Shown here piece by piece: positions 1 to 45,875 of a DNA stretch of 64,000 nucleotides (position 1 is its first letter; each line of letters starts with the position of its first letter). The position numbers and the translations under genes were made by a program. Origin of the DNA: an uncultured Gammaproteobacteria bacterium (GTDB lineage Bacteria; Patescibacteriota; Microgenomatia; UBA8517); contig CAZRJH010000004.1 in assembly GCA_964600575.1 (NCBI GenBank), positions 70,711 through 134,710 of the forward strand, written 5' to 3'. Under the pieces are notes generated by a model. That model had not been told where the DNA came from and did no database searches. It worked only from the letters and a program-made list of their open reading frames with translations.

Positions 1-255
1 TATAGCTCAAGTAATTTTTTTGGGAACGACAGCAATGATTATCGAAATTGTAGAAATATTTTAAACAAAGAATATTATTTATCTTGTTTTTCGGGTTATA
101 TTAAAAGGTTTATAGCCGTTAATGTAAGAAAACAGGATGATATTGTCTACAAACAAGAAGTTTGTGGCACAATTGATTTATCAGCCGAAGAGGCTAAGGT
201 TTGCCAACTTTTATTGGCTGACTTTATAAAAAACAATGAGACAGGTTTTAAATAA
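1..255 (+). CDS. 3' end (85 aa) of an upstream gene, probably another member of the Cys-rich paralog family; Cys-rich tail CxN...C...C...C, stop TAA at 253-255 overlapping the next start
   Basis: Frame 1 is open from the window edge to TAA at 253-255. The spaced-Cys tail resembles the C-termini of the downstream paralogs. Truncated, so not in the ORF track. Confidence 0.35.
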   Translation, partial: YSSSNFFGNDSNDYRNCRNILNKEYYLSCFSGYIKRFIAVNVRKQDDIVYKQEVCGTIDLSAEEAKVCQLLLADFIKNNETGFK

Positions 256-1744
256 ATATAAATTTTGGCTAATGTTGGGATCTGCAACCCTGATTGTAAT
301 TTTTTGTTATGCATTTGTGCCCAGGGTCAAGCTAGTCAAAAGCGGTACGGTTGTTATTGCTTACGATACAAAAAAGGGGTTTATCCCCAGAGAAATTGTT
401 GTAGCCAAGGGTACGACTGTACGTTTCGAAAATGTTAGCGGCACTGCTTTTTGGCCCGCCAGCGATTTTTATCCCCAAAATTCTAATTATCCCGACTTTG
501 ACCCAAAAGGTGCGGTAGAGAACGGCAAGGGTTGGGAGTTTCGCTTTGACACCCCTGGCGAGTGGGCATATCACGATCATTTGAGGCCAATAGATAAAGG
601 TTTGGTGACGGTGGTTAACGGCGGAAGAATATATTTTGAAAAGAAAAGTACCTGTGGAGATATGGATAAGCTTAGTTACAGTCAAAAACAGCTTTGTTGG
701 TATAACCAGATTAAGTCATCTGTAAAGTCAGGGGGTGTTTCTAAGGCACTTAGCCTTTTTAAAGATCTATACAATAAAGAATCATCTTTTTCCCAGGGTT
801 GTCACGATGCAATGCATTTGATTGGTGACGAGGCATACAGAGAGCATTTAAAGGGTAATAAATTTGATTTTACAGTTGAAACGACATATTGCGGCTATGG
901 TTTTTATCACGGTTTTATAGAAGCAATGCTTTATACCAAGGGGGATTATGAAGAGGTTACGAAATTCTGTGAAGACACAAAGACTAATCTTAAAACCGAC
1001 ATTGAATCACCAAATGCAATTTATTCGTGCTATCACGGAATAGGTCATTCTACTTTTGATGCTCACGATCCTTCTTCCTGGGGAAGCGAGGAAAAAATGG
1101 TAACCCCTGCCATAAAAACATGCGAAAGAATTACCTCAGGCTTTTCGGAAGAAAAGACCAAGCAATGTATTACCGGGGTGTTTAATGCGTTAGGGATAGC
1201 TTATTCAAGTGGGTTGTATAAGTTTAAATTAAATATGAAAGACCCGGTTTGGTACTGTAGACCCTTAAAAGAAAATTATAAAAAAGCCTGTTTTATCGAA
1301 GTTTCAATGGCATATGTAAACTCTCAGCTAGGGGGATATGACTTCAAATTTTCCGAAGGAGCCAATTTTATAGCAGGTCTTAAAGACCCAGTTGGTGAAG
1401 AGGCGGCAATGTTTGCCTTATCGTCTGAATTTTCTAGACTTCACTTGTCGGATTTTACAAATTCTCGGCTTTTAGGTAATTGTGAAACTGTTAAATCTGG
1501 CTTATTTGACTCCTGCTTGCAAGGTGTAGAACTTGCACTTTTAAATTGGGGCAAGCCGGGTGAGGAGTATAAAAGAGCACTGTTGTTGTGTTCTGATCAA
1601 AAATTGAACAGCAAAAACAAAGAAAAGTGTTTGACTTATATATTTAACAATCTCCCTAGTCTTTACTCGAAAAATAAAAGAACTGAAATTTGTCAAAATG
1701 AAGTGGAGGAGAACTTTAGGGAAAGTTGTATAAATATTAATTAA
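236..1744 (+). CDS. Secreted/anchored Cys-His-rich repeat protein (family A) with N-terminal cupredoxin-like domain
   Basis: 502-aa ORF with an N-terminal hydrophobic anchor. Residues ~35-130 match a cupredoxin fold (VRFENxSG...WPASDFYP...GEWAYHDHLRP). Family motifs CHDAMHLIGDEAY, CGYGFYHGF, CYHGIGHS and CITGVF follow. It is paralogous to 8+ downstream ORFs. Confidence 0.8.
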   Translation: MRQVLNKYKFWLMLGSATLIVIFCYAFVPRVKLVKSGTVVIAYDTKKGFIPREIVVAKGTTVRFENVSGTAFWPASDFYPQNSNYPDFDPKGAVENGKGWEFRFDTPGEWAYHDHLRPIDKGLVTVVNGGRIYFEKKSTCGDMDKLSYSQKQLCWYNQIKSSVKSGGVSKALSLFKDLYNKESSFSQGCHDAMHLIGDEAYREHLKGNKFDFTVETTYCGYGFYHGFIEAMLYTKGDYEEVTKFCEDTKTNLKTDIESPNAIYSCYHGIGHSTFDAHDPSSWGSEEKMVTPAIKTCERITSGFSEEKTKQCITGVFNALGIAYSSGLYKFKLNMKDPVWYCRPLKENYKKACFIEVSMAYVNSQLGGYDFKFSEGANFIAGLKDPVGEEAAMFALSSEFSRLHLSDFTNSRLLGNCETVKSGLFDSCLQGVELALLNWGKPGEEYKRALLLCSDQKLNSKNKEKCLTYIFNNLPSLYSKNKRTEICQNEVEENFRESCININ

Positions 1745-1748
1745 CCAA

Positions 1749-2984
1749 ATGAAAAAAATAATAAATATATTCAAATACTTAGTATTAGCTTCACTACTAA
1801 CCCTTGTTTCTTGGTATTTTATAGTTGTACAAAGCGGAAATATTTTGGTGTCAGGTGGTAAAGGGCTCACATACTTTGCCAGCAAAATAACAAAAATATG
1901 TTCCACCAGTGCTTATAGACCGGCATGCTATGACAAGGAAATACCAAAGCTGGTTGCAAAAAATCTGATTTCCATGGAAGATGCGTTTTCTGTAACTTCT
2001 ATCATTCAAAAAAACGATAGAGAATACTTGTATTGCCATATCTTGGGTCATAATTTGGCGGATGAAGAAACCAAGAAGGACCCGGATAAGTGGTTAGATG
2101 TTATAACACGATGTCCTGCTCTTGCTTGTAATAACGGTTGTGCGCACGGGGCGATAATGAGGAAATTTAAAGGAACGGAGATATTAAGTAATTCTCAGAT
2201 CGCAGAAATAATGCCAGATTTATCTATTGCCTGCGAGCCGAGAGATTCCTGGCTTCCGACCGAACTCGAAAGATCGATGTGTTATCACTCGCTTGGACAT
2301 TTAGGACTTTATATTACCGGCGCAGATATTGATAAGTCCCTTGAAATATGCAAAAAGGTCGGTATTAAAAGTGACGGCAGAAGTTACTATCAGACCTGTG
2401 CGTCAGGTGTTTTTATGCTTATCTTTCAGGCCTTGGATGATGACGATGCTGCCCTTGTAGCCAATGTAAAACCCGCCAAAGACCAGGTTGTTAGATTTTG
2501 TTCTAGGTATCAAGGTTTAGAAAATACCGCATGTCGTACAGAATCTTGGCCTTACTTTTTTGACGAATTTGCAAAACCCGAAGGACTGGTCAAATTTTGT
2601 AGTTTTACTTCAGATAAATATTTTCGCAATTGGTGTTTTGATACCGGTCTCAGAGGCGGATTAACTTTAAAAATACTTCAGACCCAAGGCCCAGATGGTG
2701 TTTCTAGATATTGTGCAGGTTTGCCCGAAGACATTAAAGGTAGGTGTTTTGCCTCAGTGGCAAATAGCTGGGTTCAGGATGAACCAAACTACATTAGTGA
2801 CTCAGTGGCACTATGCAAGGCTGCGGAAAAGTATGGTTTTTCTGAAGAATGCTATAACGGCCTTTTGTATTTTTCAAAATTTAGTTTCAATAAAGGGTCA
2901 GACTTATGGAAAAATTATTGCAACGAATTTCCTGAAAACTATAAAACCAGATGTTTTTCCGGAGACACCCCCGAAGGTTGGTAG
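1749..2984 (+). CDS. Secreted Cys-His-rich paralog (family B subtype)
   Basis: 411 aa with an N-terminal TM. Motifs YCHILGHNLADEE, CNNGCAHGAIM, CYHSLGHLG and CASGVF. Roughly 65-70% identical to the 4487..5710 product. Confidence 0.8.
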   Translation: MKKIINIFKYLVLASLLTLVSWYFIVVQSGNILVSGGKGLTYFASKITKICSTSAYRPACYDKEIPKLVAKNLISMEDAFSVTSIIQKNDREYLYCHILGHNLADEETKKDPDKWLDVITRCPALACNNGCAHGAIMRKFKGTEILSNSQIAEIMPDLSIACEPRDSWLPTELERSMCYHSLGHLGLYITGADIDKSLEICKKVGIKSDGRSYYQTCASGVFMLIFQALDDDDAALVANVKPAKDQVVRFCSRYQGLENTACRTESWPYFFDEFAKPEGLVKFCSFTSDKYFRNWCFDTGLRGGLTLKILQTQGPDGVSRYCAGLPEDIKGRCFASVANSWVQDEPNYISDSVALCKAAEKYGFSEECYNGLLYFSKFSFNKGSDLWKNYCNEFPENYKTRCFSGDTPEGW

Positions 2985-2990
2985 CAACTT

Positions 2991-4484
2991 ATGCCTTTTA
3001 AATTAACCAGACTCCATGTTTTAACTTTTGCAGTTCTGTCAGTTGTTCTTTTTTATTTTTTCACTACTAAAGTAAGTCTTTTTTCTCGGAATGTGGTATA
3101 TCTGACAAACGACGGATTTGTGCCATTTGGTATAAAAATAACTAAAGGTGAACCTGTAAGATTTATAAATAAAACCGATAAACCCTTTTGGCCAGCAAGC
3201 GATCCTCATCCGCAACATACTAATATTGCCGGATTTGATTCCAGTAAGGCGGTTTTGCCCAAAATGTTTTATGAGTATACATTTTCCGAGACGGGAAGTT
3301 TTAGATACCACAATCATTTAAACCCTAGTCAAAGAGGTGTCGTAAAAGTTTTGGAAACAGCAACCATCAGCGATGTTGATTGTAAAAATACAAGGGACCT
3401 ATATGAGCAAAAAGAGTGCTACTCAGGCGAACTTGCAGAAATTCAGACTTTAAAAGGAGAATTGTCTGCCCTAACACTTTTAGACAAGGTGGTTGAAGAA
3501 AATCCGGGCCTGCAAAGGGAATGTCACGATATGGCTCATTATATTGGCGAAGAAAGTTATTGGTCCTATTCTAAATCCAAAAAAATTATCAAGTCGGATA
3601 AAATTTCGATTTGCGGTTTTGGCTATGTTCATGGTTTTATGCAGGAATTTGCCCACCATTCGGTTGATTTTTACTCTAAAAGTAAAGACCTTTGTGATTA
3701 TTTTGCAAAAGACATTACATACAATGGTACGAAATGGGATATTGAGCCGGGTGATACTTGCTACAACGGTGTGGGGCACGGAGTAGTGTTTCTAAATTAC
3801 GATGACTATTCTGATAACTTAGCGCTTCTGGCTAAGGTCTCTGCAAACAAGTGTGCAGACATAAGTAACGACCCAAAAAGTCTGGACCACTGCTACCAAG
3901 GTGTTTTTAGCGGCATTTCCGGTTTATATCTTGGTACACACGGATATTTGATTCCGCTTGATGAGGAGCCGCTTAAACTTTGCACTAGTTTTGAACGAGA
4001 TTTTCGTGAGCGTTGTTTAGGAAACATGATTCCTGTTGTTGGTGTTCTTTATAACAGAGATTTGGAAAAACTTGCAAGAACAGTAAAAGGCTTTGATTTG
4101 AAGGATTCAGAATATGTATACAAGATGATTGGCAATATAGCCTCCAGTTGGTATGAGGCCGGTTATGCTAATTTGCAGTCTATCGAGAGTTTTTGCGCCA
4201 AGTCGGATTACAGTTTAAGAAAATATTGTGCTAAAGGTTTTACCGAAGGCCTGGCTTATTATTCTGAGTTTGCGAATGCCTGGAAGACGGTTAAGCTTTT
4301 TTGTAGCAACCTTGGACTTTCGGATTACGACACGAATGAGTGTAAAATGAGTTTTTTCTTAGAGTTTGAAAACCTAAATAGCGAAATGATTGAAAACAAT
4401 TTAAAAAGTTTGGATAAAAAAGACTTCCAATTTGTTTGCGGAAATAACATAATCAGTAAATATTGTTCGTATTCGAACAATTGA
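2991..4484 (+). CDS. Cys-His-rich repeat protein (family A) with N-terminal cupredoxin-like domain
   Basis: 497 aa. Cupredoxin-like segment FINKTDKPFWPASDPHPQH...GSFRYHNHLNP. Then CHDMAHYIGEESY, CGFGYVHGF, CYNGVGHG, CYQGVFSG. Confidence 0.8.
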   Translation: MPFKLTRLHVLTFAVLSVVLFYFFTTKVSLFSRNVVYLTNDGFVPFGIKITKGEPVRFINKTDKPFWPASDPHPQHTNIAGFDSSKAVLPKMFYEYTFSETGSFRYHNHLNPSQRGVVKVLETATISDVDCKNTRDLYEQKECYSGELAEIQTLKGELSALTLLDKVVEENPGLQRECHDMAHYIGEESYWSYSKSKKIIKSDKISICGFGYVHGFMQEFAHHSVDFYSKSKDLCDYFAKDITYNGTKWDIEPGDTCYNGVGHGVVFLNYDDYSDNLALLAKVSANKCADISNDPKSLDHCYQGVFSGISGLYLGTHGYLIPLDEEPLKLCTSFERDFRERCLGNMIPVVGVLYNRDLEKLARTVKGFDLKDSEYVYKMIGNIASSWYEAGYANLQSIESFCAKSDYSLRKYCAKGFTEGLAYYSEFANAWKTVKLFCSNLGLSDYDTNECKMSFFLEFENLNSEMIENNLKSLDKKDFQFVCGNNIISKYCSYSNN

Positions 4485-4486
4485 AT

Positions 4487-5710
4487 ATGAATCTAAAAAT
4501 CTATAGTCTGGCTGTTTTTATAATTGCGGTTTCCACTTTTAATTTTTTCTTAAAAAAGGACCCACCCCTGGTTTTTAAAGATAATGCGGTTGTTTTTTTT
4601 ACAGAACAGATACTAAAACGATGTTTACAGGAGAATTTTAGAAGAGGTTGTTACGATCGAGAAATTCCTAAGATTTTAGAAAAAGGCTACCTTTCTATGG
4701 AAGACGCTTTTGCAGTGACTAACGAAATCCAAAAAAGAGATACAGCCTACTTATACTGCCATACTCTAGGGCATCAACTTGCCGATATGGAAACAAAAAA
4801 AGATGTCGATAAGTGGTTAGACGTAATCGCCAGGTGTCCCAACTCTGCCTGCAACGGCGGATGCGCGCACGGAGCAGTTGTAAGGCGTTTTAAAGGTAGC
4901 GAAACCTTGACTGATTCTCAGATTGATACTATCCTTCCCGAACTTAAAATCGCTTGCGAACCAAGAAGTAAATGGCAACCCTCCGGACTTGAAATATCGC
5001 TTTGTTACCATTCGATAGGTCATCTTGGAATGTACATAACCGATGCAGACATAGATAGGTCGTTGGAGCTGTGTCGTAAAATAACAAAAAAAGACGATGG
5101 TAGAGATTATTACCGTACCTGTGCACAGGGTGTGTTTATGATAATTTTTCAGGCAAGGGATAACGATGATGTGGCGCTGGTCTCAAAAATAGTTCCCAAA
5201 AAAGAAGATGTGGAAAAATTTTGCTCTAGGTACAACGGCGAAAACCTGGTTGCCTGTAGAATTGAGTCTTGGCCGTTTTTCTCCGACGATTTGAGGTCCG
5301 CTCAAGGTCTTACAAAATTTTGCAGTTTTACGAATGTCCCCGATTTTAGAAAATGGTGTTTTGATGATTCAGGAATGAGGGGTGGTTTATCAATCGAGAT
5401 TTTGCAGTCTAAAGGTGTGGAAGGGGTTGGGGTATATTGCAGCTCATTTCCAAGTGATATAAGCGGTCGTTGTTTTGGGTCTGTGGCAACTGCGTGGGTG
5501 CAAGATGAACCCGGGGCTTTGACAAATGCTGTTTTGTTATGCAACCAGGCTGACAAATATGGATACTATAACGAGTGTTTTTCCTCTCTTGCATCATACG
5601 GGAAATTTCGTTTAAATTTTGGAAGCAGAGATTTGTCTAGTTATTGCAATAGTCTACCAACTGAGTTCTCAGGAATTTGTCAAGATAAAAATTACGAAGG
5701 TAAATGGTAA
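4487..5710 (+). CDS. Secreted Cys-His-rich paralog (family B subtype)
   Basis: The ORF track starts at 4463. ATG at 4487 lies 2 nt after the upstream stop and gives the signal-like N-terminus MNLKIYSLAVFIIAVS. The protein is near-collinear with the 1749..2984 product (LYCHTLGHQLADMETKKDVDKWLDVIARCP...). Confidence 0.78.
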   Translation: MNLKIYSLAVFIIAVSTFNFFLKKDPPLVFKDNAVVFFTEQILKRCLQENFRRGCYDREIPKILEKGYLSMEDAFAVTNEIQKRDTAYLYCHTLGHQLADMETKKDVDKWLDVIARCPNSACNGGCAHGAVVRRFKGSETLTDSQIDTILPELKIACEPRSKWQPSGLEISLCYHSIGHLGMYITDADIDRSLELCRKITKKDDGRDYYRTCAQGVFMIIFQARDNDDVALVSKIVPKKEDVEKFCSRYNGENLVACRIESWPFFSDDLRSAQGLTKFCSFTNVPDFRKWCFDDSGMRGGLSIEILQSKGVEGVGVYCSSFPSDISGRCFGSVATAWVQDEPGALTNAVLLCNQADKYGYYNECFSSLASYGKFRLNFGSRDLSSYCNSLPTEFSGICQDKNYEGKW

Positions 5711-6876
5711 AAATAAAAATAGATTATAAATTTGTTTTTGGAATCTTTTGGTCGGCATTTGTTTTTTGTTTGACAGGAATGCTGATTATTCTATTAACAA
5801 AGGATAGGTTTGGTATTAGTTCTAGATGCAGTTCTTTAAAAGAAGATGCCAAGAAGATCGAATGCTGGAAGAAAATAATTGACACGAACTTGGCAAGAGG
5901 AGATTTGGATGGCAGTATGAGCTTGGTTGCCGAGTTCTATCAAATAGATTCTGTTTTTGCTGCAAACTGCCATGATTTTACGCATTCTGTTGGTAAAAAA
6001 GCATACGAGCTGTTTTCTAAAGGTGTTAAATTCCAGGTCGGAAGTAAAACATCTTACTGTGCTTATGGCATCTATCACGGTTTTATGGAAAATCTTGTCG
6101 CCAAGAGCGGTGATATACAAACTGCTAGGGACTTTTGTAGGCAGGTGGATGCCGAGCTTTCTAAAACATCGCCGGGGGCAAAATTTGCCTGCTATCACGG
6201 AATAGGCCACGGTTGGACTAATGTGCACGATAGTAAATTTTCAGGGGATGAACTCGCTATTATTAAACCGTCCTTGGCACTTTGCGAAAAAGTAACAGAT
6301 GATTCGGAGGAGCTAAAAATATGTGCCACCGGTGTATTCGACTCAATTTCAATCGGTTATTACAACAAGATTAATAATCTAGTAATGAATAAAAAAGATC
6401 CGTATTGGTTGTGTAAACTTCAGAGCGATAAATACAAGCAGTCTTGTTATATGGATATATCACCGGCAGTTTTGTGGTTGGGTGATTACAATTTAGATAA
6501 AGCCTTGGCGTTTGTGGCGACTGTAGAACCAAAGTTTAGAAGTTTAGTAACTAAAACACTTTCAGAAGATTCGGTGAGATTCATATTACGGGATAGTAAA
6601 AATATTGAGACACAAATAGATATTTGTAGAAAAATGGGTGGTGAGATGTCGGGTATGTGTATTAAGGGTATCGCTCAAGGATATCTTCAGTTTGGGCCGC
6701 CAAAAGAAGAGGAGAGGTTGGCTTTGATTTTTTGCGGCAACAACTATTTAACAGAAAACGAGAAACAATTATGTTATGGACAGCTATCACAAAGCGTTAA
6801 AATAATTTTACCCGATGAAAGATATAAAGAAGCTTGTTCTAAGATACCGGAGCAATACCAAGAAGTTTGTATTTAA
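5704..6876 (+). CDS. Cys-His-rich repeat protein (family A, no cupredoxin domain)
   Basis: 390 aa with an N-terminal TM. CHDFTHSVGKKAY, CAYGIYHGF, CYHGIGHGW, CATGVFDS. Start overlaps the upstream stop (ATGGTAA). Confidence 0.8.
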   Translation: MVKIKIDYKFVFGIFWSAFVFCLTGMLIILLTKDRFGISSRCSSLKEDAKKIECWKKIIDTNLARGDLDGSMSLVAEFYQIDSVFAANCHDFTHSVGKKAYELFSKGVKFQVGSKTSYCAYGIYHGFMENLVAKSGDIQTARDFCRQVDAELSKTSPGAKFACYHGIGHGWTNVHDSKFSGDELAIIKPSLALCEKVTDDSEELKICATGVFDSISIGYYNKINNLVMNKKDPYWLCKLQSDKYKQSCYMDISPAVLWLGDYNLDKALAFVATVEPKFRSLVTKTLSEDSVRFILRDSKNIETQIDICRKMGGEMSGMCIKGIAQGYLQFGPPKEEERLALIFCGNNYLTENEKQLCYGQLSQSVKIILPDERYKEACSKIPEQYQEVCI

Positions 6877-7912
6877 AAAAGAAATATTGAAACATGTTTT
6901 GTTGACTCTGGGAATCAGCGCTTCGGTTTTTTTGTATGTAGCTGCAAAACCTTGGGATAAAAGCGATTGCAGAAGAAACATGAGATTGTACGGTTATAAG
7001 TTCTATCTGTCGTTTAATGAAGCTAAAAAACCGATTTTCCAGGTCCAAAACAACAACGACAAGTGCTATTACGAATTTTTTGAAGGAATACACAAAGCCT
7101 CGACCGTTTTTAGCCCAAACTATTCTAAGCTGGAGAAGGTTTGTTCATATATAAATAAGAGTTATCCCGTAAAAAGTTGGGACCAGTGCTATTTCAAAAT
7201 AGGCATAGCTTCAACCTACACCAAACGAGACACTGTTTATGATCTTCTGGATTTAGAAAAATTTATTGACAAACAAATTAAATTCTGTGAGAAATCAGGC
7301 AAACATGCCGGGGATTGTATTGTGGGTGTTTATACTGGGGTCAATTTGGCTTTTCAAAACAACGATAAAGATTCTGGATTCGGATTAATGAATGATCTGT
7401 TTTGGCCGTGCAAGACAGGCATGGGAAAAGCCTACAAGCTTCAGTGTTTCAGGGGCATGGTCTCGCTTTTATATGGATATACAAAAGGTGATTCAGCAAA
7501 AGCAAAGGAATTAATATTCGATAATCTTACAGACAAGTTTGAAAGGTTTGAGGTTACATTGACTTATTTTTCTAGTCTTGCGTATATAGACGAATATGAT
7601 CCCTATAAAGTTGCACGGCTTTGCACATCTATAGATGAAGGTTTTGTGAGATATGCTTGTATATTGGGTTATGCTACAGGGATTGACGAAGTTGCAGGAA
7701 ACGGCAATGAGGGCAAGGCTGTGGTTGATTTTTGTGTCAACGAATTGTTTTCGTTTAACGAAACAGGCGAATGTATAAGGCGAGGTTTTTTTGAACTACC
7801 CACAACTTGGAATATCGACTCTAAAAAGAAAATATGTTTGCAATTATCACCCATTAAATATAAAAACTATTGCGAGCTAAATATGGAAATGCCTAAAGCA
7901 GCTAAATTATGA
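6815..7912 (+). CDS. Secreted Cys-rich paralog, His-poor subtype (family C)
   Basis: The ORF as tracked overlaps the upstream gene by 62 nt. An in-frame TTG near 6884 would give the signal-like start (M)KHVLLTLGISASVFLYVAA, so the true start may be later. Motifs CYFKIGIASTY and CIVGVYTGVN are degenerate versions of the family A repeats. Confidence 0.7.
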   Translation: MKDIKKLVLRYRSNTKKFVFKKEILKHVLLTLGISASVFLYVAAKPWDKSDCRRNMRLYGYKFYLSFNEAKKPIFQVQNNNDKCYYEFFEGIHKASTVFSPNYSKLEKVCSYINKSYPVKSWDQCYFKIGIASTYTKRDTVYDLLDLEKFIDKQIKFCEKSGKHAGDCIVGVYTGVNLAFQNNDKDSGFGLMNDLFWPCKTGMGKAYKLQCFRGMVSLLYGYTKGDSAKAKELIFDNLTDKFERFEVTLTYFSSLAYIDEYDPYKVARLCTSIDEGFVRYACILGYATGIDEVAGNGNEGKAVVDFCVNELFSFNETGECIRRGFFELPTTWNIDSKKKICLQLSPIKYKNYCELNMEMPKAAKL

Positions 7913-8910
7913 GGAAATTATTAACTGCAACTGTTCTTTTAATGTTGAGTTTTATTTTTATTGACTTTTCCGTTGATTCTCATTCTCAGTATTGTACTTA
8001 TTTGAACAAATATTCGGGTTTTAGGTTTTATGTTTTAGATACGTTGGGTATAAAAAGCAATTTTCCCGGTTCCACAAAAGCTGAAAGTTGTAAATTGGCT
8101 TTTTATAGGGGAGTTTATGAAGGAAATAAAATTATACCCGGATACGAAAGATTAGATACGGTATGTAAAAAGATAAACGCCAACTCTGGTTACAGACTTT
8201 GGGATGTTTGTTATTTTAATTTGGGAATCTCGGTTTTGTACTACAGAAACAACGAGAATGTTAATAATCAAAATCTTGTTTTGGACACGGAAAGCGGTAT
8301 TCGTTTTTGTGGCGGTACATCTAACAAGTTGAGTTGTATCGCAGGTGTATTTACGGGAATCAATTGGTTTTTAACTGACAACCCGAAATATAAACCGATT
8401 CAAGAAAACCCCGTGTGGATTTGCCAATCTTTAAAATATCCCGATTATAAGTTGCAATGCATGCGAAACTTAATTTCTTATCTATACAGTTACTCGGGTG
8501 GTAATTTGGAAAAATCGTTACTAATAATTGAACAAAATTCATCGAACATCTTTGAAAAATATGAGGCTTCTCACACGTTGTTTTCTAGCTTAGCTTTTAC
8601 TGACGACTTTACCGAAGAAGCTGTCAAAAAGATTTGTGTCGACTACAAAGAAAGATGGTTAAAAATGGCTTGTGTTTCCGGATATGCAAATGGAATAACC
8701 GAGACTGCCGTAATCGGTACTGAGGCGAAACGTATTTTGAATTATTGCGGATCAAATATTTTTTCCTTTGAGGATAAAGCTGAATGTTACAGAAGAGCCT
8801 TTTCCGAAATTCCAGGTTTTGACAAAAAAGCTAACTGTTTGGTTAATGTGCCTGAAAATTTTAAACATGTCTGTCGTCTGGTAGAAGAAGTTGTCCCAGT
8901 ACCTCAATAA
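7909..8910 (+). CDS. Secreted Cys-rich paralog, His-poor subtype (family C)
   Basis: 333 aa with an N-terminal TM, similar to the 6815..7912 product (CYFNLGISVLYY, CIAGVFTGINW). Start is an ATGA overlap. Confidence 0.75.
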   Translation: MRKLLTATVLLMLSFIFIDFSVDSHSQYCTYLNKYSGFRFYVLDTLGIKSNFPGSTKAESCKLAFYRGVYEGNKIIPGYERLDTVCKKINANSGYRLWDVCYFNLGISVLYYRNNENVNNQNLVLDTESGIRFCGGTSNKLSCIAGVFTGINWFLTDNPKYKPIQENPVWICQSLKYPDYKLQCMRNLISYLYSYSGGNLEKSLLIIEQNSSNIFEKYEASHTLFSSLAFTDDFTEEAVKKICVDYKERWLKMACVSGYANGITETAVIGTEAKRILNYCGSNIFSFEDKAECYRRAFSEIPGFDKKANCLVNVPENFKHVCRLVEEVVPVPQ

Positions 8911-9977
8911 TGAAAAAAATAGTTTCACTTTTGATTTTGATTATCGGCATATTCTTGTATTTTTTTGGAGTTGGCAACAAAGAGTTTCAAAACAGGATTT
9001 TTACAAAGTGCAAAGAGGATAATTTCCCTAGAATTTGTCAAGAAAAAGAAGTGTCGGAAGTTTTACAAAAAAGAGGCACACATTTTGCATTTGTTGCCAC
9101 AGAATATCTTAAAAAGGCTGATCCCGAATTTGGGCCTTCTTGTCACGGCTTTGTTCATGGGTTGGGAGTTTCCGCGTATAAAATGATCCTAGAGGAAAAA
9201 AATGTTTTTGCTAAGCCTGTTTCCGCTTGTGATTATGGCTTTTATCACGGACTAATGATGGAGATTGCTATGCATTCAAGAGACGACAGAAATAAAGGAT
9301 TTGCCTTAGCCGACAAACTCTGTCAGCGGTTTTTCAAATTATCCAATAAAGATAACTCGATTTATTATCAATGTTATCATGGGATAGGGCACGGGCTTCC
9401 GTTGGCGATAACCGACTACAGACCGGAAAGCGTGGCGAGCGTCTTGGATCAAAGTCTCAAATACTGTGATGATTATTTTGACGGGAAAGAGTTTTGTAAG
9501 GTTGGTGTATATGGAGGGTTTGTTTCTTTTTTGACGGGTGAGCACAACTTGAGAATCGAAGGCTTTGAGGTTGATGATATGTTGGATATATGTTCCAGGC
9601 AAGACAGTTCAATGAAGCCATACTGTTACGAGATGGCAGCGCCAGCACTTTTGTTTTCGTTTGACGACAATGTATATAAATCAGTTGATGCTATGAATCG
9701 GGCAATTGCAGAGGACTCAGATAAAATATTGATGGCAAGGCAAATTGGACAGGCGATTCTAACTTATAAATATGACGCAACAGCACAGGACCTTAAATCT
9801 ATTTGTGGGAAAGTAAGCGGCAAAAGCCATTATAGTTGTATCGAGGGCTTTATGAACGCATTCCTAGATTCCAGGCCAGATAAAAATATTAAAAAAACCG
9901 CTGAAGTTTTTTGTAAATCCGCTAACTTTGACATCTTGGAAACAGAGTCTTGTTTAGGACCGCTCAAATATATATGA
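8910..9977 (+). CDS. Cys-His-rich repeat protein (family A)
   Basis: 355 aa with an N-terminal TM. CHGFVHGLGVSAY, CDYGFYHGLM, CYHGIGHGL, CKVGVYGGF. Confidence 0.8.
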   Translation: MKKIVSLLILIIGIFLYFFGVGNKEFQNRIFTKCKEDNFPRICQEKEVSEVLQKRGTHFAFVATEYLKKADPEFGPSCHGFVHGLGVSAYKMILEEKNVFAKPVSACDYGFYHGLMMEIAMHSRDDRNKGFALADKLCQRFFKLSNKDNSIYYQCYHGIGHGLPLAITDYRPESVASVLDQSLKYCDDYFDGKEFCKVGVYGGFVSFLTGEHNLRIEGFEVDDMLDICSRQDSSMKPYCYEMAAPALLFSFDDNVYKSVDAMNRAIAEDSDKILMARQIGQAILTYKYDATAQDLKSICGKVSGKSHYSCIEGFMNAFLDSRPDKNIKKTAEVFCKSANFDILETESCLGPLKYI

Positions 9978-11116
9978 AATTTCGATATATTGTTGCTCTC
10001 GTAGTGTTGTTTGTTTTGGCCCTCTCAGCTCTGATATCTAAAGGAAACGGAAATTTGGACAAACAAGTAGGTGAATGTGTGATTTTGCAAGGGAGTTCAA
10101 AAAATAACTGTGTTTTGGATCTGGTCAAAAATTTTACCGAAAAAGGAAAAATAAGCGAGTCGCTTTCATTTCTTAGAGCATACTCTTTAAGAGATTCTGA
10201 ATACTACGGAACTGATTGTCACGGGGCCGCGCATTTTATAGGTGATGCGGCCTACGGTTTATACAAGACTGGTAAATACACCGATTTCGGCAAAGACAGC
10301 AATGTATGTTCTTATGGCTTTTATCACGCTTTCACAAGCTCTTTTGTTGTTAGTGGAGATTTTACTAAAGTCGGAGATTTTTGCTTGGGTCTTGAGACAA
10401 AGAGCGATCAATCCGCGGTTGGATGTTATCACGGGATAGGGCATGGAGCTATATACGATTTTTTTGAAACTTATAAAATTAGAGACCCGCAAACAATCAT
10501 TAATAAAAGTGTCGCGTTGTGTCAAAAAATAATGCTAAACGAAAACGGGACGAGAGAATGTATTACAGGGGTTTACGACGGCATTGGAGATGAAGTTTTG
10601 GACCCTTCTTACACAAATCTGACTCCTACGATTATTTATTCTTACTGTAAAAATCAACCCGAGAAATACAAACCCAGTTGCTACGAAAACATATCGCATT
10701 TGGTTTTCCGTAAAACTCGGCTTGGATTCGAAAACTTGGTGAATTATGCAACAACAAAGATTGAGCCAGATTACAGAGAAAGTGCGGTTAAGGGTCTTGC
10801 AACGATTTATGTAGTTGATTTAAAGGGTGGGAACATTGAAGAAGGAGTCGGGATTTGTCTAAAGCTCGCCCCAAATATCTTGAGAGCTTGTATTAAAAAC
10901 ATGACTTACAAAATTGCTGCGGATATCGAAGACGGTTCTCAATACGAAGCGGTCAAAAATTTTTGTTACAAGGCGGTGTTTGCAGGGTCAAATAGAGATG
11001 TTTGTATAAATTCGGCTGTTGAAATATTAAGTGATTATTTTGACCCTGAAGAGTTGAAGGTGAGATGCTCAAAAGATACCGGAGAAGTGCCTAATTTGTG
11101 TAAGTTTGTTGAATAA
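9974..11116 (+). CDS. Cys-His-rich repeat protein (family A)
   Basis: The ORF track starts at 9950. ATG at 9974 forms an ATGA overlap with the upstream stop and gives MKFRYIVALVVLFVLALSAL. Motifs CHGAAHFIGDAAY, CSYGFYHAF, CYHGIGHGA, CITGVYDG. Confidence 0.78.
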   Translation: MKFRYIVALVVLFVLALSALISKGNGNLDKQVGECVILQGSSKNNCVLDLVKNFTEKGKISESLSFLRAYSLRDSEYYGTDCHGAAHFIGDAAYGLYKTGKYTDFGKDSNVCSYGFYHAFTSSFVVSGDFTKVGDFCLGLETKSDQSAVGCYHGIGHGAIYDFFETYKIRDPQTIINKSVALCQKIMLNENGTRECITGVYDGIGDEVLDPSYTNLTPTIIYSYCKNQPEKYKPSCYENISHLVFRKTRLGFENLVNYATTKIEPDYRESAVKGLATIYVVDLKGGNIEEGVGICLKLAPNILRACIKNMTYKIAADIEDGSQYEAVKNFCYKAVFAGSNRDVCINSAVEILSDYFDPEELKVRCSKDTGEVPNLCKFVE

Positions 11117-12115
11117 ATGAAATATAAAATGTTGTGGTTATTGATTAGTTTGGTAATTACCGTATTGGTTTTTTTGTTTTTTGGTAAGTTACTTTATAAA
11201 CCAATTCCTATTGGAAGTAATGTTATCGAAAATCAAAAACAACTTAAAAAAATAATTGATTCAAAAGGTATAAACGCCGCCTACAAATTTTTTAAAAACA
11301 ATTTTGTTAGGTATGACTCCGTTTCGAAACACTATGTGGGTCATTTCCTTGGACAGGAGGCATATAGAGTTTTGGGTGATGAAGGGTTGGAAATATGCGA
11401 CTTTGGTTTGGATTATGGTTGTATTCATGGGTTTGTAATCGCCGGAATCTCGGAAAAAGGTAATACATATGTAACTACGGCAATGAATCGGTGTTCGGGT
11501 TTTGAACCTGATGATGTTAGACGCGGAAGTTGTGTTCATGGAGTTAGTCATACTTTACTTTTTCTCAAAGGTTATAAAGATGCTGATTTAATTTGGGCTT
11601 TGTCCAAATGCGACGATATGTTGTCAGGCGATGAATATGTTGGGCCAAGAGGTTGCTACGAGGCTGTGTTTATGGAATACAACTTAAGAAATCTTGATGG
11701 ACGGTACACAGGAAAATGGTTTGAAACAAGACCTTTTGATTATAACAATCCGCTTGCACCGTGTGACCGCCTCGAACCCAAATACAGAGGATCCTGTTAT
11801 TCAGAACTGGGTTCAATGTGGTCTAACAATATCGGTACAGATTTTGACAAAATGGCCACTTTTTGTAGCCTTATAAAAAGCAAAGAAGACGGAAGATCCT
11901 GCTTCTGGGGAATTGGAAGGTCGATGGCGGATGATTACAATTTTGATTACCGTAAGGTTGTAGATACCTGCGAGCGAGTATCCGGGGATTATTACGCTTC
12001 CTGCATTACCGGCGCTGTGGTTGTCTTAAGCAACAACGGGGTAAGCGCTTCGGTTGAAATATGTGAGACTTTAGAAGATGATGAGATTCTGAGTTGTAAA
12101 AGTCTTTTTAAATAA
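11117..12115 (+). CDS. Divergent Cys-His-rich repeat protein (family A-like)
   Basis: 332 aa with an N-terminal TM. VGHFLGQEAY, CDFGLDYGCIHGF, CVHGVSHT, CITGAVV. The same repeat pattern but more diverged. Confidence 0.72.
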   Translation: MKYKMLWLLISLVITVLVFLFFGKLLYKPIPIGSNVIENQKQLKKIIDSKGINAAYKFFKNNFVRYDSVSKHYVGHFLGQEAYRVLGDEGLEICDFGLDYGCIHGFVIAGISEKGNTYVTTAMNRCSGFEPDDVRRGSCVHGVSHTLLFLKGYKDADLIWALSKCDDMLSGDEYVGPRGCYEAVFMEYNLRNLDGRYTGKWFETRPFDYNNPLAPCDRLEPKYRGSCYSELGSMWSNNIGTDFDKMATFCSLIKSKEDGRSCFWGIGRSMADDYNFDYRKVVDTCERVSGDYYASCITGAVVVLSNNGVSASVEICETLEDDEILSCKSLFK

Positions 12116-13842
12116 TGCCACTTCAATCTAAGTTTTCCGCTAGAAACATTCTTATATTTTTAGTACCTGTGTTTTTGTGTTTCCTATTTTTAATACCGAT
12201 ACTATTTTCGTCAGGAAAAACGGGAGTTATAGATTGGGATCAGAATATGGCCTGGAATGAATTTAATAGAGTCTCCTTATTAAAATATAAACAAATACCG
12301 TTTTGGAATCCGTATAGATGCGGAGGTATCCCTCATTTTGCCGATCCCCAAATAGGTTTAATATCAATCCAAACACCGCTGGTGTTAATATTTGGGACCC
12401 AAACAGGTTTAAAAATAAGTATATTTGTTCATTTGATTTTGGGGTTTTGGGGGGCTTACTTGCTGTTTAAAAAACGTGGGATTTCTGATATTTCTTCTTT
12501 TTATATTTCCATGCTTTTTGCGTTTAACGGTATAACCGCCTCCTTTTTGTGGGCGGGTATGTTGGTCTTTTTAAACTTTGCCTATATACCTTTTGTTTTG
12601 TATTTTATCGATAAAAAAGATATTAAAAGCCTAATTAAGGCAGGGGTAATTTTTGCCCTGTCATTTTATTATGACTACCACATCCCTTTACTTTTTTCTC
12701 CATACATAGTTTTCCAGGTGGTGCGACTATTTTATCCCTACGGAATTTTGAACATTGTTAAGAAGTTGGCTCTGTTTGTATTTGTATTTATTTTGTTTTC
12801 GTTCCCTAAACTTATACTTTCCCTGGAGTTGTATTCCAACTTTCGTAGAGTTGTCGAAAATCCTTACGGTTATCGGATTGGCAACTTGATACATAATTTA
12901 ATATCTCCAAGCCAGCCTTTGTATGAATTAAATAACGGCGGCGGGCTGGTTGGGGCAGATGAAAAATCAATATATCTTGGAATAATTCCGCTATTATTTA
13001 TTCTGTTTTTGCCTTTGCTTAAAAGAGGTCCAAAAAAGTATATTGTCCTAATTTTATTAGAACTCATTGTCTTTGTTTGGATTTCTATGGGTTCCAAGAT
13101 AAATCCATCTCTTTATGAAATCTTAAAAATTGTTCCGTTTTACGAATCTTTGAATATGGCAGAAAGATTCCGATTTGTGTTTATGATCCCTCTTTTGATG
13201 TTAATTGGTTTTGGGTTTAGTAGTTTCCTGGGTGGGTTTAAGGGGATTCTAAAGCCGCTTATGGCGGGACTCATTATAGCATCCACGTTCATAGATATTG
13301 TTATTTTTTCAAGAAACAATTTTTTAAACAATTCGCTTGTAATATCTCAAAAAAATGTTGGATATTCGGGAGGGCCTTATCGCCAAATCTTTTCGGAAAA
13401 TGATGATTATAAATACTTTAAATACTCACAAAGTTGGTTAGAACACAATTCCGACGCAGTTCAATTTTTGAAACCATGGTCTTATGAATATGAATATCTC
13501 AAAAGTGAGATTGGGGTAATCGACTGTTACTCTCCTTTTGGTGGCACAGAGTCTGTTAAGGGTGCTAATCAGAACGGGTACAAAGGGGAGTGGTATTTGG
13601 AAAAAAACAAAGGAACGATCAAGTTATTGTTTTGGTCTCCAAATAGGGTATTGATTAAGGTTGATATGCCCAAAAAAGAAAACGATGTATTAATTTTGAA
13701 TCAGAGTTATTTTAAAGGCTGGAAAATATTGGTAAACGGGAATAAGGTGACGCCTGAGAGTACATCAGGACTTATCTCTGTCAAGATCAACGAAAATTCC
13801 CATGTCGTTGATTTTGTTTATAACCCGTTTCTTTTTCGTTAG
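12115..13842 (+). CDS. Polytopic membrane protein, YfhO/GT-C-like putative glycosyltransferase
   Basis: 575 aa with at least 10 hydrophobic helices. The N-terminal loop (WDQNMAWNEF...FWNPYRCGGIPHF) resembles the YfhO-family N-terminus. Family assignment rests on pattern resemblance only. Confidence 0.6.
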   Translation: MPLQSKFSARNILIFLVPVFLCFLFLIPILFSSGKTGVIDWDQNMAWNEFNRVSLLKYKQIPFWNPYRCGGIPHFADPQIGLISIQTPLVLIFGTQTGLKISIFVHLILGFWGAYLLFKKRGISDISSFYISMLFAFNGITASFLWAGMLVFLNFAYIPFVLYFIDKKDIKSLIKAGVIFALSFYYDYHIPLLFSPYIVFQVVRLFYPYGILNIVKKLALFVFVFILFSFPKLILSLELYSNFRRVVENPYGYRIGNLIHNLISPSQPLYELNNGGGLVGADEKSIYLGIIPLLFILFLPLLKRGPKKYIVLILLELIVFVWISMGSKINPSLYEILKIVPFYESLNMAERFRFVFMIPLLMLIGFGFSSFLGGFKGILKPLMAGLIIASTFIDIVIFSRNNFLNNSLVISQKNVGYSGGPYRQIFSENDDYKYFKYSQSWLEHNSDAVQFLKPWSYEYEYLKSEIGVIDCYSPFGGTESVKGANQNGYKGEWYLEKNKGTIKLLFWSPNRVLIKVDMPKKENDVLILNQSYFKGWKILVNGNKVTPESTSGLISVKINENSHVVDFVYNPFLFR

Positions 13843-13885: not shown

Positions 13886-14482
13886 ATGGAAAACGGCACA
13901 GGGGGAGTTCCTGTTATTCCCACAGATCAACCCAATCAGACTATACCTGAAGGCAATATTCCTGAAGTAAAAACTATAGAGACAGATACAGGTCAGTTTC
14001 AGGAGGAGCAAACTCCGTTTTATAAAGAGTTTAGTTTTTGGATTTTGATTTTGCTGGTTTTTTTCTTTGTCGGAATAATACTTTTTTGGGCGCTGCCTTT
14101 ATTTAAACCGCCATTTAAGGCAAGCGTAGTCATGGAGGGGGGTCAAGTTAGACTGAAGGTAGAAAACTTGAGTGTAACAAAGATAGGGTATATAGTAGTC
14201 CGTAGAGTCGTTAACGGATTGCCTGATGCCTTGGTAGAAGTAAGTACTCAAATTTTGCCGGATGATTATGAGCTTTTTTTTGTACCGCTCTCCTTTGGTC
14301 CAGATACGACACCCGAAAAATACTACCAGGATCTTGTGGGTTCGGAACTTAGGATAGACTATTTTACGGATTTGAATAGCGATAACATGTATACCAAAGA
14401 GATCGACACAGAAATTCTGAAGGACGCCGGCGGAGGCAAAAGGAGCGTCAACTTGATTAACGGAACATCCGAACAAAAATGA
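13886..14482 (+). CDS. Small single-pass membrane protein, unknown function
   Basis: 198 aa with one TM (FWILILLVFFFVGIILFWALPLF) and a C-terminal soluble domain. Confidence 0.5.
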   Translation: MENGTGGVPVIPTDQPNQTIPEGNIPEVKTIETDTGQFQEEQTPFYKEFSFWILILLVFFFVGIILFWALPLFKPPFKASVVMEGGQVRLKVENLSVTKIGYIVVRRVVNGLPDALVEVSTQILPDDYELFFVPLSFGPDTTPEKYYQDLVGSELRIDYFTDLNSDNMYTKEIDTEILKDAGGGKRSVNLINGTSEQK

Positions 14483-15012
14483 GACACTTATATTTTACCC
14501 TGAGATTGTTAGTCTTTGTTTCAGTTTTCATTTTTTGTTTTTCATCTGCAGATGGTGTGTTTGCTCACGGTACTGCACAGAGCTTTCCAAAAGATATCGG
14601 CCAGTACACGGTGGAGCTTGAGTATGACGCACTTGGCATTTTTGATGACACCACGGAGCCTTTGGTTTTTAGGCTATTAGACCAAAAGTCAAAAGAACCC
14701 GTAAAATTTAGTGCTCTTTTGGTTAGACTTGAAAGAAAGGATGACAAATCTACCACTTTTGTGGTAAGACTTTCCCCGGATGACTTCCTAGACGGTGTAG
14801 GAAGGATGACTGCCATGCTAAATAGAGGTGATTATCTAATTACTTTGATCTTTTACGGTGGGGAGAATCGACTGGTCGAGGCGGAGTACGATTTAACTGT
14901 GCAAAAGGGATCGGCTAGCGACTTTCCAGTAATTCCTGTTGTATCAGGTGTTTTGGGTGCTGTTGCCGGTTTTGTAGTAGGGAGGCTAAAAAAGACCTCT
15001 CATGAAAAATAA
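14479..15012 (+). CDS. Secreted protein with signal peptide and C-terminal TM anchor
   Basis: 177 aa. N-terminal signal peptide (LLVFVSVFIFCFSSADGVFA) and a C-terminal hydrophobic helix followed by a basic tail (GRLKKTSHEK). Start is an ATGA overlap. Confidence 0.5.
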   Translation: MRHLYFTLRLLVFVSVFIFCFSSADGVFAHGTAQSFPKDIGQYTVELEYDALGIFDDTTEPLVFRLLDQKSKEPVKFSALLVRLERKDDKSTTFVVRLSPDDFLDGVGRMTAMLNRGDYLITLIFYGGENRLVEAEYDLTVQKGSASDFPVIPVVSGVLGAVAGFVVGRLKKTSHEK

Positions 15013-16633: not shown

Positions 16634-17020
16634 ATGAACAAAAAAACTTTCTTGGTGGCATTGGTAGTAATTGTTTTTTTTGTCGGTTACTTCATTTATA
16701 AAAATTATTTTTCGACACCACAAAGCAGATTTGTAAATCTGAGCGCAGAAAATGTCGTTAAAATGGGTGAAGATTCATACGCACCCGTTGATTTCGAAGT
16801 TAAAAAAGGAACAAAAGTCAGATTTGTTAACGAATCGGGCACCTTAAGGTGGCCCGCAAGTGACTTACATCCTTCTCATTTGATATATCCGGAATTTGAT
16901 TCCAAAGAACCTGTTAAAAACGGTGATTCTTGGGAGTTTGAGTTCGACAAAGCAGGCGAATGGAGTTATCATGATCACCTGGCCCCATATATAACAGGTA
17001 CAATCAAAGTATCGGAATGA
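16634..17020 (+). CDS. Stand-alone cupredoxin-like domain protein (membrane-anchored)
   Basis: 128 aa. N-terminal TM, then VRFVNESGTLRWPASDLHPSH...GEWSYHDHLAPYITGTIKV, the same domain that is fused at the N-termini of the 236 and 2991 ORFs. Confidence 0.8.
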   Translation: MNKKTFLVALVVIVFFVGYFIYKNYFSTPQSRFVNLSAENVVKMGEDSYAPVDFEVKKGTKVRFVNESGTLRWPASDLHPSHLIYPEFDSKEPVKNGDSWEFEFDKAGEWSYHDHLAPYITGTIKVSE

Positions 17021-40570: not shown

Positions 40571-41098
40571 TTAGTGATTAATTTCGAAGTTTCCTTTGTT
40601 TTCATCGAGCCAGCTTAAAAACTGTCTTACATCTGAGACATAGTTTTTGAGAGTGCTTGAGCTTACCTTTTCAGCCTCCAAAAACACTTTAAAGTCGTCG
40701 ACTATATCAAAAGACATCTTTGGAGCTGGGCGGTTCTGTGCAATGTTTTCTATCCCGGTTGTGAAATCAGAATTTACGATTTGGGTTGCAACCATAAACC
40801 TGCTTAAGTGTCTAAGTGTCGAGAGTCTTCTATTCACCGACCCTATTGGCTGGCTGTTTTCGATCATGTAGTTTTTGTACTCCGTGGCAATGTTTTTGTT
40901 GAGAAAGGGAACTGCTTCTGTAAGTGTTTCGACATACGACCCGTAAGACCTAAGACGGAGGATTAACCAACCCAGAAAATGAGACAAATCGCTTCTGTAG
41001 TTTTTGTGCGATTTTGGAGTAACGCCCAAAGTATCAAGATATTTAGAAAACTCTTTGCGGATGATATCGTTATCGATTTTGGGCATTTTTGTAATCAA
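40571..41098 (-). CDS. Stand-alone protein with two tandem phage-integrase N-terminal SAM-like domains and no catalytic domain
   Basis: 175 aa. Repeat 1: PKSHKNYRSDLSHFLGWL. Repeat 2: SSSTLKNYVSDVRQFLSWLDENKG. Compare the XerC/XerD N-terminus (NTLxAYRRDLxxFxxWL). No R..HxxR..Y tyrosine-recombinase catalytic region follows. Confidence 0.72.
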   Translation of the reverse strand: MITKMPKIDNDIIRKEFSKYLDTLGVTPKSHKNYRSDLSHFLGWLILRLRSYGSYVETLTEAVPFLNKNIATEYKNYMIENSQPIGSVNRRLSTLRHLSRFMVATQIVNSDFTTGIENIAQNRPAPKMSFDIVDDFKVFLEAEKVSSSTLKNYVSDVRQFLSWLDENKGNFEINH

Positions 41099-45865: not shown

Positions 45866-45875
45866 ACATAACTCT

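Follow-up and report, generated by a model that had tools for sequence, protein, structure and literature searches.

A WPAS-type cupredoxin-like domain with a putative side-face histidine site and its cysteine-rich helical partner proteins in Patescibacteria

We describe a cupredoxin-like domain (Cup) and the gene set around it in a 64,000-nucleotide stretch of contig CAZRJH010000004.1 (assembly GCA_964600575.1), which as a whole is referred to as the window. Genes are named after their first position in the window. A six-frame translation of the window was searched with a hidden Markov model (HMM) of the domain family, and three copies were found and no others (E 1e-49, 3e-36 and 8e-34). Two of them form the N-terminal part of larger fusion proteins (genes 236 and 2991), the third is a short protein of its own (gene 16634). 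When the segments of the fused genes were compared with gene 16634 by BLASTP, E-values of 6e-27 and 4e-20 were obtained, and an alignment of the first ~130 residues of the fusions with the whole short protein gives 36–44 % identity among the three copies. A preliminary description of this DNA had recognised two fused copies and one stand-alone copy and had placed their motifs; open reading frames (ORFs), BLASTP, HMM scan and motif coordinates all agree with it. Each of the three proteins begins with a hydrophobic helix (aa 2–27 in the AlphaFold2 (AF2) models), from which we infer that the domain is probably exposed at the outside of the cytoplasmic membrane.

The AF2 model of the stand-alone protein, built on an alignment of 38 homologues and the three window copies, has a pLDDT of 89.7. 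Its top Foldseek matches in the PDB are all cupredoxins (E ~6e-8, probability 1.0), among them the C-terminal cupredoxin of a Nitrosopumilus multicopper oxidase (MCO), the purple cupredoxin 5fc9, plastocyanins and amicyanins. The family sequence profile searched against the PDB finds 9cck (E 4.7e-9) and amicyanins (3e-8 to 4e-7). Since structure search and sequence profile find the same proteins, the assignment to the Greek-key β-sandwich of the cupredoxins, already proposed from the spacing of the motifs, is secure. Among the Pfam models PF13473 (Cupredoxin_1), whose gathering threshold is 27 bits, scores 26.5 bits on the stand-alone copy (E 6.8e-6) and does not match either fused copy at E≤1; many homologues carry a precomputed PF13473 match. 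With amicyanin and plastocyanin (PF00127/PF13473) the domain shares, besides the sandwich, the V-x-F-x-N strand, the G-x-[WYF]-x-[YF] strand and a short, amicyanin-like C-terminal loop.

Single residues are numbered as in genes 236 and 16634, whose numbering is identical. In the alignment of the family profile with amicyanin, position 72 corresponds to His53 (ligand His1), D114 to Cys92 (the ligand Cys), position 117 to His95 (ligand His2) and position 120 to Met98 (the axial Met). A search of the full library with the family HMM brought up canonical cupredoxin proteins with several repeats alongside the subfamily. Column 114 of a single hmmalign alignment holds C in 62 canonical domains (H...C..H..M) and D or N in 159 domains of the subfamily studied here, which confirms the earlier placement of an Asp or Asn in the column of the ligand Cys. 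The accompanying assumption that only the Cys had been exchanged within an aromatic-H-C-x-x-H-x-x-M loop did not hold, as His1, His2 and Met are gone as well: in the three window copies position 72 is F/F/R, position 117 R/N/A and position 120 D/Q/I. For a broader view of conservation, 408 non-identical domains carrying the WPAS motif (see below) were pooled from database representatives, fusion proteins and genome loci. Position 72 is mostly F (216 domains), R (66) or H (54), position 117 is His in just 11 domains and otherwise A, N, S, R or another residue, and position 120 is Met in just 17. Position 114 is D in 375, N in 27 and E in 2 domains and never C, so that all 404 domains without a gap in this column have D, N or E. 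Judged by these columns, all four type-1 ligands are lost across the WPAS subfamily. Cupredoxins without the Cys are as such already known.

Because all four ligands are gone, the subfamily cannot serve as a blue-copper electron carrier. That it is nevertheless an ordinary plastocyanin-type carrier is what the JGI annotation of several homologues implies: 'plastocyanin' is the source label on 7 + 5 of them, and there are weak matches to TIGR02656 and PF00127. These matches stay far below the cut-offs (17.8 versus 87.9 bits for TIGR02656, 12.5 versus 21.2 bits for PF00127), and with Cys absent from all 408 domains and the other three ligands not conserved we consider this explanation already refuted by the sequences and give it practically no weight. 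The finding corrects a misleading annotation of a large subfamily. It also matters for models of electron transport, into which single-domain 'plastocyanin' genes of Patescibacteria are fed: pcy has been proposed as electron donor to NirK in Patescibacteria (PMC12931201). The WPAS subfamily at any rate, having lost its ligands, cannot act as a blue-copper carrier.

What is conserved instead is a different set of residues, summarised by the signature WPAS[DN]xHP[TS]HxxYPxFD ... GxWx[YF]H[DN]H[LI]xP, after which we call the subfamily WPAS. H79, H82, H113 and H115 occur all together in 378 of the 408 domains (93 %), H113 is without any substitution and D89 is found in 400. Among 104 aligned fusion proteins W73, P74, A75, S76 and P80 are invariant. 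Position 77 alternates between D (252 domains) and N (141); this interchange, and to a smaller extent the one at position 114, is the pattern that would be expected of hydrogen-bonding second-shell residues, not of primary ligands. The losses of the histidines are nested. Tyr79 always coincides with a loss of His82 (16/16), loss of His115 is confined to domains that also lack His82 (9/9), and these cases fall largely in the clade containing gene 236. The nesting therefore suggests that residues 79, 82 and 115 may act as one functional unit and that H113 may be indispensable.

In the predicted topology H79 and H82 belong to an insertion of 7 residues that follows strand 4 (WPAS[DN]xH79PxH82), and H113 and H115 flank the vestigial Cys position on strand 7. 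By the alternation of residues along strand 7, residue 114 would face the old type-1 pocket, now lined and filled by the aromatic residues F72 and F/Y120, and would act there as a hydrogen-bonding residue; H113 and H115 would be directed the other way, towards the lateral ('east') face of the sandwich. The loop 77–89, with H79, H82, Y85, F88 and D89, would cover the same lateral face, because the plastocyanin loops whose place it takes, those of the 'acidic patch', flank Tyr83 at the position Cys-1. In such an arrangement the histidines could form a mononuclear His3-4 site of the type-2-copper or zinc kind with D/N77, D89 and D/N114 in the second shell. An HxH on a strand together with one or two neighbouring His is the classical make-up of a mononuclear three- or four-His site, as in carbonic anhydrase, the CuB site of PmoB and the copper site of superoxide dismutase. 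The geometry of the cluster, the binding of a metal and the kind of metal are read here from strand alternation and from homology to MCO and nitrite reductase (NiR), and are to be taken as predictions.

In MCO (H-C-H) and NiR (H-C) the His residues flanking the Cys bind type-2 or type-3 copper about 12 Å from the type-1 site. When the profile of the fusion proteins was searched against the PDB, domain 1 of NiR was found with E ~5e-3 and domain 1 of laccase and of ascorbate oxidase with E 0.2–1. In these alignments H109-S-H111 of laccase (residues 79–116) and H104-x-H106 of ascorbate oxidase (residues 82–111) stand in register with H113-D-H115. A further laccase sequence, used as a lead only, gives the same HxH register. 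Domain 1 of MCO (laccase L2 W-Y-H-S-H) and the His-Cys motif of NiR offer a parallel to a cupredoxin without a type-1 site in which a non-ligand occupies the Cys column between two His. The residue in that column is Ser or Pro in MCO domain 1 and Asp or Asn in the WPAS subfamily, and the His of MCO bind type-3 copper at a domain interface. The WPAS proteins have no partner cupredoxin with HxxHxH or HCH; their partner is all-α. Compared with amicyanin and plastocyanin, the WPAS domain lacks His1, Cys, His2 and Met, has the 7-residue WPAS[DN]x insertion and four new His, is membrane-anchored and in most cases forms a fusion with a helical domain. Should the four histidines bind a metal, they would represent a type of site new among cupredoxins, in which the side-face His pair known from MCO is kept and the type-1 centre is missing. 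Such a site would bear on the evolution of the interface sites of MCO and NiR from single cupredoxin domains.

The preliminary description had proposed, as one possibility, a remodelled His/Asp/His site at the position of the type-1 copper, in which Asp114 would directly bind Zn, Fe or a non-redox Cu. An Asp in the Cys column with H113 and H115 directly beside it is compatible with such a pocket, and a precedent exists in FtrB (PDB 8VUK), the 'Cup-II' protein, which is likewise a periplasmic single-domain cupredoxin without His-His-Cys and has an Asp where copper binds: Cys-less FtrB binds Cu2+ via Asp118 and His121 and oxidises Fe2+ (PMC11966278). The WPAS motif is H-D-H, however, and the FtrB-like D-x-x-H (D118-x-x-H121) is not there, the residue at +3, position 117, being His only in the few domains counted above. 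The former His1 is most often Phe, positions 72, 117 and 120 are not kept as ligands, and 27 domains, that of gene 2991 among them, have Asn in place of Asp. On a β-strand residue 114 would moreover face away from 113 and 115, as in the H-C-H of MCO, and the D/N interchange at 114 and 77 fits second-shell hydrogen bonding better than an Asp as primary ligand. FtrB also belongs to a different setting (FtrABCD), with an acidic Fe patch (E84/E86/E93) and an Ftr1-type permease. No Ftr1/EfeU-type permease was found among the scanned window genes or the neighbours in related loci, and no Glu triad is among the invariant columns of the WPAS subfamily, although no search was aimed at one. We regard an Asp-ligated pocket as improbable.

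The partner of the domain in the two fusions, termed family A, is a domain of ~350 aa that is all-α with 16 helices in the AF2 model of gene 236 (pLDDT 93.8, pTM 0.89). It has eight invariant Cys pairs, probably disulfides linking helix hairpins, and a His cluster consisting of C-H190-x3-H194, H225 and H267-x3-H271. H190, H194, H225 and H271 are invariant among the fusion proteins, H267 is present in 103/104, and E229 and D275 are nearly invariant. The window contains 11 complete family-A copies and a fragment at its left end, with CHxxxH, YHG and CYHGxGH as the general form of the His motifs; the paralogues in the array carry 14–20 Cys each, and genes 6815 and 7909 are without the His cluster. 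Family A gave no match in scans with Pfam and NCBIfam and no convincing relative in PDB searches by Foldseek or by profile.

Family A and the cupredoxin-like domain go together in most places. Family A is encoded no more than 8 kb away in 64 of 78 loci, usually as an array of 4–12 paralogues, and we counted 74 Cup-A fusions next to 58 stand-alone Cups. The functional partnership of the two modules that had been proposed from the window is thus very strongly supported by linkage and fusion. The pTM of the fusion model argues for a fixed packing of the two predicted domains of gene 236 against each other. Family-A paralogues outnumber Cup domains 3–10 to 1 and retain the His cluster where there is no Cup, and the family-A site would for this reason be autonomous.

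These observations bear on the possibility that the four Cup histidines and H190, H194, H225, H267 and H271 of family A together form an interdomain di- or trinuclear copper centre of an oxidase, which would be a special case of the lateral His3-4 site. The register of the HxH with the type-3 ligands of MCO, the position of the family-A cluster in the first three helical repeats near the linker and the pTM of the fusion are in line with it. So are the fused and split forms, for which EfeO and EfeM are a known example: EfeO consists of a 'Cup-I' domain and a helical M75 metal-binding domain, and M75-only EfeM forms exist (PMC9174327). E. coli EfeO (7wgu) is also the top Foldseek match of the gene-236 model (E 1.8e-5), at a TM-score of merely 0.15–0.20. 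The excess of family-A paralogues that keep their cluster without Cup speaks against a composite centre, as does the fact that the cluster is unchanged in the clade that has lost the Cup histidines; compensating changes in family A were sought in the clade without H79/H82, and merely two unremarkable columns differ. We consider a composite centre doubtful, about as much so as the Asp-ligated pocket.

The likeness to EfeO and EfeM extends to an N-terminal cupredoxin-like domain followed by an all-α domain with His motifs, to the extracytoplasmic location and to the occurrence of fused and Cup-less forms. Family A differs in its 8 conserved Cys pairs, in its other His motifs and in its arrays of 4–12 paralogues, and efeU and efeB are not present. 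An assignment of family A to M75/imelysin was rejected, as Pfam gives no sequence signal and the profile search against the PDB finds only cupredoxins. The resemblance to EfeO is at the level of architecture. The WPAS subfamily lacks defining features of type-1 proteins, FtrB, EfeO and MCO domain 1, but has in common with the last the HxH around the vestigial Cys.

Upstream of gene 16634 the window encodes a further conserved protein, p177. Its signal peptide ends A-x-A|H (VFA|HG), so that the predicted mature protein starts with His30. In 18 aligned members only His30 and Gly117 are invariant, which leaves His30 as the sole invariant side chain. The body of p177 is Ig/filamin-like (PDB profile match 2j3s, E 8e-5), and no match was found to Pfam or NCBIfam, including the CopC and DUF1775 models. 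Of the 23 loci that contain p177, 20 have it immediately ahead of a Cup gene, 5 of these with a PMT_2 glycosyltransferase in between as in the window. Four cluster representatives are fusions of the order p177-TM-TM-Cup (TM, transmembrane segment), which would put the p177 and the Cup domain alike on the outside of the membrane.

Histidine-brace copper proteins, for example CopC, YcnI and lytic polysaccharide monooxygenases (LPMOs), are characterised by a conserved N-terminal His that follows the signal peptide. By analogy p177 is a candidate histidine-brace metalloprotein or metal chaperone, and its N-terminal His would be the main indirect argument that the system handles metal. Conserved N-terminal His residues of this kind have been used to predict metalloproteins (10.1101/2021.06.11.448128; PMC12537917). 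CopC and YcnI/DUF1775 resemble p177 in having an invariant His after the signal peptide and a β-sandwich body, and YcnI also in its C-terminal anchor (10.1101/2021.06.11.448128); they differ in that a further conserved His, Glu or Trp could not be recognised in p177. An identification as CopC or YcnI was rejected because the family models do not match and the architecture is analogous only, and one as LPMO because there is no second invariant His. Literature searches on the domain and its gene set in CPR/Patescibacteria gave nothing specific, and neither the WPAS...HDH subfamily nor family A nor p177 was described in the papers found.

To see how widely the domain occurs, its profile was searched against 1.84 billion representatives (clustered at 50 % identity), and 359 proteins were found at E≤1e-30 and 4762 at E≤1e-10. 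Among the best 150 of these matches the Cup domain stands alone in 86 (~130 aa) and is fused to family A in 37 (~490–500 aa); Cup-A-Cup-A occurs in 2, p177-Cup in 4, and the remaining 21 are multi-Cup arrays and one-off combinations of Cup and A. When one genome was scanned for each GTDB species, 74 loci were obtained; as the genome scans were seeded with the motif itself, their focal matches are biased towards it. Records with informative titles are nearly all labelled as Patescibacteria (Paceibacterota, Daviesbacteria, Nomurabacteria, Yanofskybacteria, Adlerbacteria, Taylorbacteria, Andersenbacteria, Doudnabacteria) with a handful labelled as archaea (Aenigmatarchaeota, Woesearchaeota and others). 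The generic titles 'uncultured Gammaproteobacteria' and 'Saccharibacteria' of many records were not used as taxonomy. Many TPA_asm records of metagenome-assembled genomes so titled (L005, L019, L021, L022, L024-L026, L028 and others) hold the family-A/Cup/p177 set of the window, and in locus L005 the gene order is that of the window at 60 % identity. Titles such as 'uncultured Gammaproteobacteria' or 'Candidatus Saccharibacteria' appear to have been assigned automatically and not reliably.

On the basis of these sequences and titles the WPAS subfamily appears to be large and almost confined to Patescibacteria. In these ultra-small episymbiotic bacteria the domain marks a conserved, heavily amplified and uncharacterised surface gene set, in which a locus can have as many as twelve Cys-rich paralogues with the His cluster, and besides them a protein with an N-terminal His. 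The WPAS-type domain was also seen on unrelated extracytoplasmic proteins (P0057, P0121, P0142, P0055): a long surface protein rich in repeats, a domain of ~350 aa with a helical appearance by sequence, a coiled-coil protein and Pro-rich surface proteins. To judge from these architectures the domain behaves as a portable module.

Taken together we favour a lateral, non-blue His3-4 metal site on the cupredoxin-like domain, which with family A, fused or next door, and p177 would form an extracytoplasmic metal-handling or metal-dependent system; we assign this reading a probability of roughly 0.5. Several points weigh against it. In the clade of 13 to which gene 236 belongs H79 and H82 are replaced by Tyr and Asn/Asp, and in 7 of the 13 H115 is lost too, so that the His quartet seems dispensable in some paralogues. 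The closeness of H79, H82, H113 and H115 rests on topology and not on model coordinates. Each match to MCO domain 1 is individually insignificant, and the L1-type HxH (HWHG) of MCO at p+3 and p+5 is not present; A75 and D/N77 are found there, and the WPAS loop has its His at p+7 and p+10. Genes for metal transport or metal regulation were not found in the window, and the operon neighbours are glycosylation enzymes (PMT_2, DegT, GT2, methyltransferase). Finally, the conserved W73, Y85, F88, W100 and W110 together with the Asp, Asn and His residues would also suit a glycan- or protein-binding surface.

Several of these points would be accounted for by a metal-free binding module, in which the cupredoxin scaffold presents the WPAS...HPxH...FD...HDH surface to a glycan or a protein. 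The ligand could be a glycopolymer of the cell envelope or of a host surface, synthesised by the glycosyltransferases encoded nearby, or the family-A domain itself. The operon with the PMT_2 (GT-C type) gene, the adjoining DegT, GT2 and methyltransferase genes and the fixed Cup/family-A interface indicated by the pTM of 0.89 are in line with such a module. The modular use of the domain, N- or C-terminal on FN3-like repeat, coiled-coil and other unrelated extracytoplasmic proteins, the D/N interchange at 77 and 114, typical of hydrogen-bonding residues, and the retention of the domain in a clade that has lost 2–3 His can be read in the same way. Four near-invariant His, one of them (H113) at 100 %, are however unusual for a lectin or an interface and typical of a metal site. 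The Tyr, Asn and Asp of the degenerate clade are still polar and capable of ligating a metal, the coupled p177 has its invariant predicted N-terminal His, and stand-alone and fused forms each have their own membrane anchor. We therefore hold a binding module to be unlikely, although it deserves more weight than an Asp-ligated pocket or a composite centre. The most far-reaching version of the metal-site reading would be a metalloenzyme or metal-acquisition system specific to Patescibacteria, possibly with DPANN archaea, in which cupredoxin and α-solenoid form an oxidase with a composite multinuclear copper centre that is loaded by p177 as chaperone. We mention it as a speculation with small chances of being right. 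The features of the window are listed in Table 1.

Table 1. Positions of the cupredoxin-like, family-A, p177 and other genes and motifs in the window
Feature	Position (nt)	Strand	Description
Family-A fragment	1..252		incomplete copy
Gene 236	236..1744	+	502 aa; membrane helix aa 2-27, T1-less cupredoxin-like domain, family-A domain aa 148-499 (ORF, AF2, HMM)
Cupredoxin-like domain of gene 236	347..616	+	aa 38-127 (about aa 31-134); degenerate variant, Y79 and N82 replace His
Motifs of gene 236	419-433; 452-481; 569-580	+	VRFEN; WPASDFYPQN; YHDH
Family-A His cluster of gene 236	800..1048	+	CHDAMH aa 189-194; CGYGFYHGF aa 219-227; CYHGIGH aa 265-271
Gene 2991	2991..4484	+	497 aa; second cupredoxin-like/family-A fusion; domain aa 32-121, nt ~3084-3353
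Motifs of gene 2991	3189-3218; 3306-3317	+	WPASDPHPQH; YHNH, Asn in Cys column
Gene 16634	16634..17020	+	128 aa; stand-alone membrane-anchored cupredoxin-like protein
Motifs of gene 16634	16850-16879; 16967-16978	+	WPASDLHPSH; YHDH
Gene 17017	17017..18195	+	family A; 4-nt overlap with gene 16634; CHSLGH, WHG, CYHG; without fifth His
Tandem family-A array	1749..12115	+	without cupredoxin domain; only interruption is fusion gene 2991
Array members, first half	1749..2984; 4463..5710; 5704..6876; 6815..7912	+	
Array members, second half	7909..8910; 8910..9977; 9950..11116; 11117..12115	+	
p177	14479..15012	+	177 aa; signal peptide, Ig/filamin-like body, C-terminal membrane anchor
Predicted mature N-terminus of p177	14566-14568		His30
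PMT_2 glycosyltransferase	15002..16588	+	GT-C type, membrane; between p177 and gene 16634
Large polytopic membrane protein	12115..13842	+	
Large polytopic membrane protein	22374..23612	-	
Secreted protein	21347..22303	-	318 aa, 18 Cys
Giant ORF	23591..40564	-	5657 aa
Integrase-like ORF	40571..41098	-	175 aa
ComEA and split ComEC	45236..47863	+	ComEA (SLBB and HHH), then ComEC as two ORFs
ComEC, Competence domain	45876..46958		
ComEC, metallo-beta-lactamase domain	46958..47863		
Giant ORF	50397..63632	+	4411 aa

Three large membrane proteins encoded in the window are polytopic (genes 12115, 15002 and 22374). Only gene 15002 has a Pfam match (PMT_2), and phmmer found relatives of gene 22374 in 4 of the related loci and of gene 12115 in 1. 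The three genes adjoin genes for a DegT aminotransferase, a GT2 glycosyltransferase and a methyltransferase, which points to a cluster for surface glycosylation whose genes are interspersed with the cupredoxin and family-A genes. The window also encodes a secreted protein rich in Cys, Gly, Asn and Ser (21347..22303); it shows no relation to family A, and Pfam gives no match.

In its general features the window is of the Patescibacteria type: the G+C content varies between 36 and 45 %, and genes for ComEA and ComEC as well as two giant ORFs are present. The giant ORFs have a G+C fraction of 0.44–0.45, above the 0.36–0.38 of the neighbouring genes, and the one of 4411 aa opens with a match to a MerR-type helix-turn-helix (E 4e-12), which is odd in a giant protein. 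Directly upstream of the 5657-aa gene is the 175-aa ORF, which matches only the N-terminal SAM-like domain of phage integrases and may, from this match, be the remnant of a truncated integrase. ComEC is split between two ORFs, one carrying the Competence domain and the other the metallo-beta-lactamase domain.

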